Virus record (IMG/VR): IMGVR_UViG_2850796239_000006
DNA: 52,929 nt
Origin: a virus
Taxonomy: Duplodnaviria > Heunggongvirae > Uroviricota > Caudoviricetes
Strand: one strand, 5' to 3'
Shown here: piece by piece, positions 15,551 to 21,130 of the stretch
Layout of the letters: each line of letters begins with the position of its first letter
Position numbering within the stretch: position 1 is the stretch's first letter
The notes under the pieces: model-generated
What the model saw: only the letters and a program-made list of their open reading frames with translations
Told to the model about the DNA's origin: nothing
The model's database searches: none
Made by a program: the position numbers and the translations under genes

Positions 15551-16460
15551 TATTCCTCCTACAATCAATGTGCAATTACATTTAAACACACCTCAATTTG
15601 GCCGGACATATAAATATCTAAACTAGAAAAAATCACTTACATAGCGTTACAAACTCTTTAGTCTAAAGGTTCATCGTAAAACATTCCCCATACTTATCAG
15701 TCCGTTCCGCGCCAGGTAGCTTATTGCCTTATCTGGCAACCTATAATCAGGTTTCCGCTTTTTCAGTTGGCTGGTCGTTTAACCGACATAGTTAACCCAT
15801 TAATCTAGTTGCCGGATGTTGGTGGATTTTCGCGTTTTAGTTGTTCATAAAAGTGCACAGCTTTAACCAGTTCTTCTGATGTAACCAGGGCTGGTGAGGC
15901 AGTGAATAAGGCCTGAATTTGATAGTTCGGCCTGTCGTTACAATCCTCTTTTTTCGGTACATATTTCCAGTCAACAGACCACTACTTCTCCTGAAAGTCC
16001 GTAACGCCTTTTTTCACGTAGCGATATCGCCATGCCACTGGTTTTGCTTGCCCCGCCGTTTCATACCCTTCCTGATAATTAATCTCGCTCATTCATCGCC
16101 CCACTCATCACAATATGCTTCGACCGGATTTTTTCCTGCTTCATAATCATCACGCCATGCTTCAGCATCAGCAGCACTGCCACCACGTAACTCTGCATAG
16201 TCCATTAACAGTTCATGCCATTTTTCAAAACTGACGTTGTATTTAGTTGAACCAAAATCAGCCATTTTGCTCTTCCTCTTCGTCTTTTATTTCGTGATAT
16301 GAGTAATTGCAGTAGTTAAAGAAAATATCTTTTGCTTCGTCATGTATTTCATCAGGCGTCGCATCAGCATCCACTTCGAATTCATCCTCGAAATCTCCAC
16401 CAGCCATTCCCGTTTCAATAATTATTTTGAACTTTCGCATTTCACTACCGCCCTTTCGGG

Positions 16461-17760
16461 CTGAGGGATCCCCACAAAATTACTGCTAATAAACCAGCAC
16501 CATATTTCGGTAGGTTCTGGACAGATGGTTTAGAACTGTGCTCAGTACTGTTCGTCTTAAAATAAGTGGCGAGTGTCGAAGAACATTCTTCGCTAACGTC
16601 AGATATGAGATAACCCGCCGGGATTTAATGCTGTTAGCCTGATATTTCAGGTGTAACCCTTTATTTTCAGCGTGATAACCGAGTAACCACATTACGATAG
16701 TGCTCAACGTTGCCAGCAGACTCAGAACCAGAATTCTTCCTGTTGAACGACTTTTGCTGGCCCGAAGACCAAATCCGAAGCGCCCGTTCTTTTCATCACG
16801 AAAGTTTTGCTCAATCTGCATTCGCCGACTGTATAACTTGATGATTTCTCGCGCTCTGAAGTCATTTGTACTGCTGAAGATCAACCAGGCTTCTTTTGCT
16901 GATTTGCTCTGTTCTTTGTCTGTTTTGTTTAAACCACTCTGACCTTTCGAACGTTTCTTTTTTCGCCCTTTTGCCGATTTCTTATAGGTGTAAAAATGCC
17001 CCCGGATGCTTTTTTTCCTTTCTTTAACCAGCCTTCCAGCCCCCATATATTCCGGTGTTTTACATTCAGGGCTATCCGACACTTTTAACCATCTTTCAGG
17101 CGCGTTATCGAGGCAATACTGAACGTTATTTCTGATCCGACCAATAAAATCCCAGCCCAGAGAAGTAATATGGTGAAACCATGCGCTCTGAAATCCAGCA
17201 TCCGTGACAATAATAACCCTGGCATCGGGGGCAGGGATTGAGCAAGGGAATCAAGGAAATCATGTTGTATCAATGGATTATTTTGTTTTTCAGAAGGAAC
17301 AACCTTACTCAATAACGGAATGGAACGCCCGTCACACAGAAGGCTGGCACGAAGAACATGATGCTCCTGGGAGGGATAGCCACTCCAGTCTACGGCTATT
17401 ACACATAAAGATAACTGCCGTGTCAGCATTGAAGTGATATTCCTGAAAATCATTGGAATATCGCGATGGAGCGCCTCATTACCCATGAGGCGATCAATAC
17501 GTTTGATCTTATTCTTAACTTGTGCATTACCCGGCAAAAAACGTCCGATACTGGTCAGCGTCAGAGATGCTCCGTTGATTAACGCCACTGTGGCATCCAT
17601 CAGGGCATTTTGTCGGTACTGATGAAATGGTGCTAAGGCATCCCGGAAGAAATTCTGACATACTTTATGAACAGGCATAGCAGTGATCTCATTGAATTGT
17701 TGGCACAAATCAGTAGATCACATAATGCTATGTCTGTCTCGTTTTCTGGGGATTCCTCAG
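16461..17760 (-). mobile_element. IS10-like (IS4 family) insertion sequence, copy A (1300 bp)
   Basis: Ends CTGAGGGATCCCC / CTGAGGAATCCCC resemble IS10 termini; perfect 9-bp target duplication CCTTTCGGG at 16452-16460 and 17761-17769. Confidence 0.85.
16486..17708 (-). pseudogene. IS10-like transposase, frameshifted as sequenced
   Basis: Two ORFs (17085..17708 N-part, 16486..17082 C-part) that together equal the intact 407-aa copy B protein; shift lies at a G5 run 17227-17231, where copy B has C6 at 19263-19268. Confidence 0.8.
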
Positions 17761-18733: not shown

Positions 18734-20034
18734 CTGAGGAATCCCCAGAAAACGAGACAGACATAGCATTATGTGATCTACTGATTTGTGCCAACAATTC
18801 AATGAGATCACTGCTATGCCTGTTCATAAAGTATGTCAGAATTTCTTCCGGGATGCCTTAGCACCATTTCATCAGTACCGACAAAATGCCCTGATGGATG
18901 CCACAGTGGCGTTAATCAACGGAGCATCTCTGACGCTGACCAGTATCGGACGTTTTTTGCCGGGTAATGCACAAGTTAAGAATAAGATCAAACGTATTGA
19001 TCGCCTCATGGGTAATGAGGCGCTCCATCGCGATATTCCAATGATTTTCAGGAATATCACTTCAATGCTGACACGGCAGTTATCTTTATGTGTAATAGCC
19101 GTAGACTGGAGTGGCTATCCCTCCCAGGAGCATCATGTTCTTCGTGCCAGCCTTCTGTGTGACGGGCGTTCCATTCCGTTATTGAGTAAGGTTGTTCCTT
19201 CTGAAAAACAAAATAATCCATTGATACAACATGATTTCCTTGATTCCCTTGCTCAATCCCTGCCCCCCGATGCCAGGGTTATTATTGTCACGGATGCTGG
19301 ATTTCAGAGCGCATGGTTTCACCATATTACTTCTCTGGGCTGGGATTTTATTGGTCGGATCAGAAATAACGTTCAGTATTGCCTCGATAACGCGCCTGAA
19401 AGATGGTTAAAAGTGTCGGATAGCCCTGAATGTAAAACACCGGAATATATGGGGGCTGGAAGGCTGGTTAAAGAAAGGAAAAAAAGCATCCGGGGGCATT
19501 TTTACACCTATAAGAAATCGGCAAAAGGGCGAAAAAAGAAACGTTCGAAAGGTCAGAGTGGTTTAAACAAAACAGACAAAGAACAGAGCAAATCAGCAAA
19601 AGAAGCCTGGTTGATCTTCAGCAGTACAAATGACTTCAGAGCGCGAGAAATCATCAAGTTATACAGTCGGCGAATGCAGATTGAGCAAAACTTTCGTGAT
19701 GAAAAGAACGGGCGCTTCGGATTTGGTCTTCGGGCCAGCAAAAGTCGTTCAACAGGAAGAATTCTGGTTCTGAGTCTGCTGGCAACGTTGAGCACTATCG
19801 TAATGTGGTTACTCGGTTATCACGCTGAAAATAAAGGGTTACACCTGAAATATCAGGCTAACAGCATTAAATCCCGGCGGGTTATCTCATATCTGACGTT
19901 AGCGAAGAATGTTCTTCGACACTCGCCACTTATTTTAAGACGAACAGTACTGAGCACAGTTCTAAACCATCTGTCCAGAACCTACCGAAATATGGTGCTG
20001 GTTTATTAGCAGTAATTTTGTGGGGATCCCTCAG
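18734..20034 (+). mobile_element. IS10-like (IS4 family) insertion sequence, copy B (1301 bp)
   Basis: Same termini as copy A; perfect 9-bp target duplication CCCTGAAGC at 18725-18733 and 20035-20043. Confidence 0.85.
18786..20009 (+). CDS. IS10-like transposase (IS4 family), intact
   Basis: 407-aa ORF with IS10-type motifs IKRIDRLMGN, VDWS, DAGF, YSRRMQIEQNFRDEK. Confidence 0.85.
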   Translation: MCQQFNEITAMPVHKVCQNFFRDALAPFHQYRQNALMDATVALINGASLTLTSIGRFLPGNAQVKNKIKRIDRLMGNEALHRDIPMIFRNITSMLTRQLSLCVIAVDWSGYPSQEHHVLRASLLCDGRSIPLLSKVVPSEKQNNPLIQHDFLDSLAQSLPPDARVIIVTDAGFQSAWFHHITSLGWDFIGRIRNNVQYCLDNAPERWLKVSDSPECKTPEYMGAGRLVKERKKSIRGHFYTYKKSAKGRKKKRSKGQSGLNKTDKEQSKSAKEAWLIFSSTNDFRAREIIKLYSRRMQIEQNFRDEKNGRFGFGLRASKSRSTGRILVLSLLATLSTIVMWLLGYHAENKGLHLKYQANSIKSRRVISYLTLAKNVLRHSPLILRRTVLSTVLNHLSRTYRNMVLVY

Positions 20035-21130
20035 CCCTGAAGCCCGGCGGAATTTCGTTATCCGGTTCAGAAATATGATTCACACAACGCTGGTTGTTCG
20101 TGCCGCTTACCGGGAGCAACCAGGGGTTCTCAAAATTCCGGTCCGGTCCAAAAAACGTCGTCGCTCGCTGAACAAATTCCGTTCCCGTTTTCCCGGTAGC
20201 CGCCAAGTATCTTGCGTAACGCCTCACGCCATCCAGCATGGCCTCTGGTGGCACCCCCTCGCGTAATCTGGCCTTCCAGGCACTGAAAGCGGATTTCTTC
20301 GGGTTTGCTCCGGCACGCAACGGGTACTCCCGCCAGACCTGTTCGAACACATCCGGATAATCCACTCGTCCCACAGACTGCCCGGTGTTTTCCGGGACTA
20401 CCCGATCGGCTTCCCGCTGAATGGCGGAATCGGCTTCGGGCTGCTGCAGTTGGTGTGATTGCTCCGGCCTTGCGGTCATCACCTGCTGCACAGCGCCCGA
20501 ATCGGCTTTCAGCGCATACGCTGAATCGGCTTCCGGTGTCGTGCCTGCTGGCTGACCAAGATTGACGGTCTGAACATCCCCTGCCTGGTTCGTGGCGTTT
20601 TTTACGCCATGGACCATAGTGTTTTGATCTTCTTGATCTGTATCTTTATCTGTATCTTTATCTGTATCTTTATCTGTATCTTTATCTGTCGTGACTCGTC
20701 GTGACATGTGCGTGACATTTCGTGACGCGCCGTGACAATCGCCATTTTGTTCCCGCTTTCTTTCCCTCTCTCGCTGCGCCCTCTTGCGCTCTGCAGGAGA
20801 TTTTGCGGTTTGCGAAATATTGCCGTTGTCCTCTTTAAGCACCTGGCGTTTTTCCCATCCAGTGATTAAATCACCATCAAGTACCCGCCCCTGCATCGTC
20901 TGCAAAATTGAATCAATTACCTCTTCTGTCACGTCGAGCGCACTTGCCAAATCTTCTGTCGTGACATCAATGTGACCTCGCGTGACATTTCGTGACGCGC
21001 TCACCAGGAGGTGGATATACACTGCCATCACTGTTGCAATTGGCTGCCCTGACACCCTGGCAATTGTTCGCCACTTAGGGTCATTTGGCATGTCATGCCA
21101 TAATCTGAGCCAGGCGTTAGCCATACTCAC
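20006..21130 (-). CDS. Replication initiator / replisome organiser (lambda O-like), 3' end fused to the IS10-like terminus
   Basis: 374-aa ORF; internal (TDKD)n repeat encoded by tandem 12-bp repeats; contains clusters of CGTGAC iteron-like repeats; last residues and stop are IS-encoded (original end ...PPGFRG). Confidence 0.65.
   Translation of the reverse strand: MSMANAWLRLWHDMPNDPKWRTIARVSGQPIATVMAVYIHLLVSASRNVTRGHIDVTTEDLASALDVTEEVIDSILQTMQGRVLDGDLITGWEKRQVLKEDNGNISQTAKSPAERKRAQRERERKREQNGDCHGASRNVTHMSRRVTTDKDTDKDTDKDTDKDTDQEDQNTMVHGVKNATNQAGDVQTVNLGQPAGTTPEADSAYALKADSGAVQQVMTARPEQSHQLQQPEADSAIQREADRVVPENTGQSVGRVDYPDVFEQVWREYPLRAGANPKKSAFSAWKARLREGVPPEAMLDGVRRYARYLAATGKTGTEFVQRATTFFGPDRNFENPWLLPVSGTNNQRCVNHISEPDNEIPPGFRAEGSPQNYC
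20641..20736. repeat. Putative replication-origin repeats inside the O-like gene
   Basis: Four tandem copies of TATCTTTATCTG (20641-20688) followed by five CGTGAC hexamers at 10-11 bp spacing (20690-20736); a second CGTGAC cluster at 20950-20986. Confidence 0.5.

Follow-up and report, generated by a model that had tools for sequence, protein, structure and literature searches.

Evidence for two sequential ISSfl1 insertions, in inverted orientation, in the replication region of a Qin/Rac-type lambdoid prophage

IS10, an insertion sequence (IS) of 1328 bp that encodes a transposase of the IS4 family, carries terminal repeats of the form CTGA(A/G)G(A/G)ATCCCC and generates a 9-bp duplication at a symmetric target, GCTNAGC. 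In Tn10 on R100, the left IS10 transposase gene lies on the plus strand and the right one on the minus strand, such that both point inward. A comparable pair is present in a 52,929-nucleotide stretch of Caudoviricetes DNA (IMG/VR record IMGVR_UViG_2850796239_000006; hereafter the window), where two inverted copies, A and B, of an IS10-related element bracket a 1-kb segment next to a phage replication-initiator gene (Table 1). The element is assigned to ISSfl1, and the pair very probably reflects two sequential, independent insertions in the replication/nin region of a defective lambdoid prophage of the Qin/Rac type. ISSfl1 is similar to IS10 in its IS4-family transposase, in its terminal repeats, in the 9-bp duplication at a symmetric target and in size (1301 bp). 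The inverted geometry of Tn10 is retained, as a preliminary description of the window had noted in calling the pair Tn10-like, but the transposase genes (minus strand in A, plus strand in B) face outward, which is the opposite of Tn10 on R100. The pair further differs from Tn10 in that the DNA between the copies belongs natively to the site, a separate duplication accompanies each copy and the left inverted repeat (IRL) ends lie inside.

A repeat search and pairwise alignment of the window revealed that copies A and B are reverse complements located ~1 kb apart. Their sole difference is 1 bp within a homopolymer, comprising five G residues at 17227-17231 in copy A and six C residues at 19263-19268 in copy B; the shorter run breaks the copy A transposase open reading frame (ORF) into products of 207 and 198 amino acids. 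All four ends of the pair are intact, the outer ends being two right inverted repeat (IRR) ends, and no ISSfl1 ends other than those of copies A and B were identified in the window. The claim that each of the inverted copies has its own perfect 9-bp duplication proved exact, and the coordinates and sequences given for both copies and both duplications were all verified. The chance expectation for each 9-mer match is ~4e-6. The unit as a whole is flanked by CCTTTCGGG on one side and CCCTGAAGC on the other, each of which pairs with the inner flank of its own copy, with no shared duplication. Because the duplications are un-swapped in the window, the middle segment displays no net inversion.

Inverted copies bracketing a 1-kb segment, with four intact ends, recall a composite (Tn10-like) transposon, in which the segment would have come in together with both copies. 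The pair does consist of two IS copies whose intact outer ends bracket the segment; a single flanking duplication was not found, neither was the unit present at several locations, and the bracketed DNA is not foreign. When both elements and one copy of each 9-mer were deleted, the reconstructed empty-site sequence of 2282 bp, searched against complete Escherichia coli genomes, matched many E. coli prophages as a single piece at 100% identity (for example H10, positions 1-2259, and H11, positions 1-2247), with coverage of at least 80% in 552 genomes. The IS-free arrangement was also observed in isolated Escherichia phages. Since the middle segment (955 bp) is contiguous with both flanks in IS-free prophages and phages, it is best read as native prophage DNA rather than as cargo. 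Searches of plasmid, phage and metagenome records found neither the IS-segment-IS unit nor its junctions elsewhere, and both outer junctions lacked an exact match in metagenome contigs. A composite origin is thus opposed by the separate duplication of each copy, by hundreds of IS-free prophages, and isolated phages, in which the middle segment is colinear with the DNA on either side, by the absence of the unit from the plasmids, phages and metagenome contigs searched, and by an intermediate carrying copy A alone. It is refuted by the empty-site and one-IS intermediates and retains a vanishingly small probability. The preliminary description had likewise favoured separate insertion over a transposed composite, and had proposed two comparisons: empty versions of both insertion points, which occur in related prophages at 100% identity, and the rest of the genome. 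Chromosome CP026875.1 (GCA_002950355.1, 5.16 Mb), to which the window is identical, has no fewer than seven additional intact ISSfl1 copies, located at unrelated loci.

The order of the two events was addressed by an exact-protein look-up of the DUF977 product of the middle segment, followed by inspection of the loci. In GCA_000193915.2, site A is occupied by an intact ISSfl1 of 1301 bp, 100% identical to copy B and flanked by the duplication seen in the window, whereas site B has no insertion and the initiator retains its native 356 residues. Site B is also empty in GCA_003572355.1, whose contig ends in IRL at site A. Because the former assembly has ISSfl1 at site A only, site A was evidently hit first and site B later. 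In a third assembly, GCA_012668945.1, a stand-alone contig of 966 bp corresponds exactly to window positions 17766-18731, as would be expected if both copies were also present in a second isolate, the short-read assembly being confined between the flanking repeats. According to the proposed mechanism, ISSfl1, through its DDE transposase, would insert by cut-and-paste, leaving a 9-bp staggered-cut duplication at a GC-rich, roughly palindromic target of the CCC...GGG type. The first insertion, common to other assemblies, would have entered site A, between the zinc-ribbon frame and the DUF7167 gene, and the later one site B, three codons from the end of the initiator gene, in the lineage of the window genome. 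The 1-bp deletion of copy A is derived, provided that it is a real mutation rather than a long-read consensus error.

Two sequential insertions leave room for copy B to have hopped locally from copy A over a distance of 973 bp, which would refine rather than replace that reading. Copy A preceded copy B and its ancestral form in GCA_000193915.2 is 100% identical to copy B. The proximity of two of ~nine copies in the 5.16-Mb chromosome, within 1 kb by chance, has a rough p of ~0.01-0.02, an estimate that loses force with a higher true copy number, or with any clustering of insertions caused by target preference or prophage DNA. Against this, at least four other copies in the same genome (L007, L010, L011 and L012) are also identical to copy B. 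A local hop is therefore a tenable suggestion with somewhat less than an even chance.

An assembly artefact, in which a repeat was mis-joined or duplicated in the long-read assembly, could also create an inverted pair. The probable homopolymer errors in the assembly, and the occurrence of the fused initiator (see below) on only one contig in the protein index, would fit such an event. The duplications, however, are exact, differ from each other and lie at sites present only once in relatives; independent assemblies also have an insertion at site A; and the 966-bp contig of another isolate matches the inter-IS segment exactly. On these grounds the artefact was rejected as highly improbable.

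The window initiator, termed O-like in the preliminary description, extends 29 bases into copy B (20006-20034), which supply nine IS codons and a stop. It ends in ...PPGFR-AEGSPQNYC (EIPPGFRAEGSPQNYC) before the stop codon, versus ...EIPPGFRG in the uninterrupted orthologue; the reported fusion of copy B to the gene end, with loss of the terminal residue and stop, is thereby borne out as replacement of Gly by nine IS-encoded residues. The protein matches phrog_3729, "replication initiation protein" (E = 7e-254), its C-terminal half also matches DnaD-like helicase loader and primosomal families, and its orthologues in isolated Escherichia phages are annotated "DNA replication protein O". No match to the Pfam lambda-O domain was found in the window initiator; O-like is a positional and functional label and does not denote membership of the lambda O family. 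Family homology and gene order (cI-like, cro-like, YdaT/CII-like, then initiator) both identify it as a phage replication initiator, since it follows the cro/cII-like genes. With copy B, 1.3 kb of IS in antisense orientation separates this gene from DUF977. As copy B interrupts the early rightward operon, DUF977 and the nin genes downstream are predicted to be affected by polarity and are probably silenced. Within the initiator gene, 12-bp tandem repeats of TCTTTATCTGTA (20631-20690) encode DKDT, with two units more in the window than in the relative AST240, and a cluster of CGTGAC repeats (20698-20996) may represent origin iterons.

Nothing contradicts the two-insertion model, and the points that weigh against it are caveats. 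The donor of copy B may be copy A or any of the other identical copies; apparent 10-bp duplications in some copies may be real or homopolymer noise; and a simple promoter/terminator scan found no promoter reading out of the IS ends, with fewer promoter-like sites than in shuffles, which bears on the predicted polarity. In addition, the frameshift of copy A may be a long-read consensus error rather than the mark of a true pseudogene. In the sister assembly CP026845.1, the 1-bp-shorter run is present in at least nine ISSfl1 copies, including sites orthologous to full-run copies of CP026875.1 (L010 versus L017), and flanking homopolymers likewise differ between the two assemblies. The two ISSfl3 copies of the window also differ by two homopolymer indels (7806 and 8073). 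Alternatively, a frameshifted variant may have spread, or passed between copies by gene conversion, to give the shared shorter C-run. Most differences between repeat copies are 1-bp indels in homopolymers, and the likely errors of this kind in the source assembly could create false IS pseudogenes.

Copy B is covered over 1301/1301 bases, at 99.9% identity, by an element of E. coli FDAARGOS_943 (NZ_CP065615.1) whose coding sequence (CDS) is named "IS4-like element ISSfl1 family transposase" by RefSeq, and the name ISSfl1 was taken via this annotated match. On this evidence the element is assigned to ISSfl1, of the IS4 family, from which nothing of substance differs except that copy A is 1 bp shorter. 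The transposase passes NCBIfam NF033591 (IS4 family; 362.8 bits versus a cut-off of 152), and that of copy B matches Pfam PF01609, DDE_Tnp_1 (E = 2.5e-18). Alignment with the annotated IS10A transposase gave 35% amino-acid identity over 368 residues (E = 2e-72), with conservation of the VDWS, DAGF and RMQIE..FRD motifs. IRL (CTGAGGAATCCCCAGAAAAC) and IRR (CTGAGGGATCCCCACAAAAT) agree at 17/20 positions, and the ISSfl1 ends CTGAGGAATCCCC and CTGAGGGATCCCC are similar to the IS10A ends CTGAAGAATCCCC and CTGAAGGATCCCC, being of the CTGAGGRATCCCC type. Thus the earlier designation IS10-like holds at the family level, given the transposase identity, the similar ends and the 9-bp duplication, but the element itself is ISSfl1; at only 35% identity IS10 proper is ruled out and is a family relative.

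ISSfl1 was first named in Shigella flexneri. It is also a named locus on the pEAF plasmids of enteropathogenic E. coli (PMC5684527). Full-length ISSfl1 is rare in E. coli, occurring in 1/5426 complete genomes. A protein scan of species-representative genomes showed only transposase relatives of 38-84% identity, which are widespread and come for the most part from other Enterobacterales, and a scan of such genomes gave no match to the exact ISSfl1 IRL. A near-identical transposase is encoded on Shigella boydii plasmid NZ_CP026837.1, of the same accession block as the source genome, which, taken with the IS content, hints that the source may be a Shigella/EIEC-type strain. The same 397-residue transposase occurs at many chromosomal sites in related assemblies.

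IS10 is subject to fold-back inhibition of read-through translation, and the 5' fold of ISSfl1 recalls that case. The RNA of the IRL end, 18734-18870 (+) or the equivalent 17624-17760 (-), displays a strong fold (-44 kcal/mol, z = -5.3) in which the terminus of the element pairs with sequence surrounding the transposase AUG. No Rfam match to the antisense RNA-OUT was found at E <= 1 in 16000-20500, which leaves room for a divergent functional analogue. A sub-threshold microRNA match in the same Rfam search is spurious, as it only mirrors the hairpin at the IRL end.

Unlike those of IS10, the targets of ISSfl1 resemble CCC-N-GGG. Among 13 distinct ISSfl1 duplications from the fetched loci, which are 9 bp or apparently 10 bp long and strongly GC-rich, 10/13 begin with CC and 10/13 end with GG. 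This small data set on target choice indicates that ISSfl1 would prefer GC-rich, palindrome-like CCC...GGG targets, and both window sites fit. Three copies (L009, L021 and L022) lack matching duplications, which suggests IS-mediated rearrangements.

Table 1. Positions of the ISSfl1 pair, its duplications, the neighbouring genes and the ISSfl3 copies in the window.
Feature	Position	Strand	Remarks
ISSfl1 copy A	16461-17760	-	1300 bp; IRR at 16461 (outer end), IRL at 17760 (inner end)
ISSfl1 copy B	18734-20034	+	1301 bp; IRL at 18734 (inner end), IRR at 20034 (outer end)
Copy A target-site duplication CCTTTCGGG	outer 16452-16460, inner 17761-17769		Single-copy in IS-free relatives
Copy B target-site duplication CCCTGAAGC	inner 18725-18733, outer 20035-20043		Exact
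Copy A transposase fragments	17085-17678 and 16486-17082	-	1-bp deletion at G5 run splits ORF
Copy B transposase gene	18816-20009	+	Intact; 397 amino acids from ATG, 407 from upstream TTG
Replication-initiator (O-like) gene	20006-21124	-	Last native Gly codon and stop replaced by IRR-end sequence of copy B
Prophage segment between insertions, read as native	17770-18724	-	Contiguous with flanks, 100% identity in E. coli prophages
DUF977 (YdaW-type) gene, 140 amino acids	18257-18679	-	Pfam PF06163, E = 1.4e-29; phrog_142, E = 5e-48
ORF of 40 amino acids between DUF977 gene and zinc-ribbon frame	18138-18260	-	phrog_37408, E = 2e-32
Zinc-ribbon-like frame, 107 amino acids, CHH...CxxC motif	17843-18166	-	phrog_1621, E = 2.5e-49, function not assigned
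ISSfl3 (IS66 family) copy 1	6384-9136	+	2753 bp; name by RefSeq
ISSfl3 (IS66 family) copy 2	22612-25364	-	2753 bp; name by RefSeq

The window contains a second inverted IS pair, formed by two copies of ISSfl3, whose flanks match crosswise: the right flank of copy 1, CCCCGTGC, reads as the reverse complement of that of copy 2, GCACGGGG, and the left flanks have ATTAA in common. The reverse complement of 9137-9836 joined to 25373-26072 is contiguous in E. coli prophages (98.1% identity, one piece), with TolA-like, essD, ydfR/DUF1327 and lysozyme genes across the join. Similarly, 5684-6383 joined to the reverse complement of 21912-22611 carries ydfC, ydfB, ydfA and the cI-like gene (99.4% identity, one piece). 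Given these crosswise flanks and the continuity of both rebuilt junctions in E. coli prophages, the 13.5-kb block 9137-22611 was evidently inverted by recombination between the ISSfl3 copies. The inverted block spans the cI-like gene, the replication genes, the ISSfl1 pair and the nin region, to Q and essD, and Q now faces away from the lysis, terminase, head and tail genes at 25.4-52.9 kb. With Q turned from the late genes in this way, the prophage is almost certainly defective, whether or not the ISSfl1 insertions are taken into account. IS-flanked inversions have been catalogued in Shigella sonnei (PMC12795559), and the presence of several IS families in one prophage (two copies each of ISSfl1 and ISSfl3) together with an IS-flanked inversion resembles prophage decay of the type observed in Shigella and enteroinvasive E. 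coli.

The preliminary description had envisaged an event of this kind for the ISSfl1 pair; here it took place between the copies of another pair. Hypothetically, the ISSfl1 pair could act as a composite via its two IRR ends or invert the middle segment by homologous recombination. That the 3.57-kb unit 16461-20034 constitutes a nascent functional composite transposon or switch, in which the intact copy B transposase would drive mobilisation or inversion of the Ren-like (DUF977) exclusion gene and the zinc-ribbon gene, is considered very unlikely. Equally doubtful is the proposal that the pair is a selected device, be it an invertible switch, a mobilisation vehicle for the DUF977/Ren-like gene or a selected silencing of prophage replication. 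Identical inverted repeats are a substrate for RecA-dependent inversion, such an inversion did occur between the ISSfl3 copies of the same prophage, and the family of the central gene bears the label "Ren-like exclusion protein"; yet neither an inverted isoform nor a transposed unit was found, the prophage was already disabled by the ISSfl3 inversion, and the many IS copies in unrelated host genes fit neutral IS expansion. The consequences of the two independent insertions are presumably neutral, the prophage being already crippled. The finding is ordinary and known in kind, a case of known ISs building up in a degenerating prophage within an IS-rich enterobacterial genome, and has little importance beyond annotation; it portrays the stepwise dismantling of a lambdoid prophage, with ISSfl1 at site A and then at site B, plus the ISSfl3-mediated 13.5-kb inversion.

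The middle segment carries the 140-residue ORF and the zinc-ribbon frame of the preliminary description, but the latter, described there as unannotated, is annotated as hypothetical in RefSeq relatives, where the orthologous 107-residue frame is CDS WP_225104553.1, and belongs to phrog_1621. The name "Ren-like exclusion protein" is that of phrog_142, the family of the DUF977 product. The gene order in the IS-free relative comprises a cI-like helix-turn-helix (HTH) gene, a cro-like HTH gene, the YdaT family, a hypothetical protein of 356 residues (O-like), DUF977, the 40-residue ORF, the 107-residue hypothetical protein and DUF7167, and continues onward to hokD, DUF968, RusA and an antiterminator. 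The zinc-ribbon frame, which overlaps the 40-residue ORF before it, lacks a canonical start codon upstream of 18019. Its 107-residue RefSeq orthologue seems to need a non-canonical start, and an old frameshift or translational coupling could account for this; the oddity is unrelated to the IS, because the same sequence is present in IS-free relatives.

Towards one end of the window, a tRNA-Ser(CGA) gene (892-981) adjoins an ORF of 345 amino acids on the minus strand (1009-2046), and this is probably the integrase and attachment site. A tRNA-Arg(TCT) gene and a tRNA gene with a CAT anticodon are located downstream of Q (11568-11821), as in Qin/Rac-type prophages.

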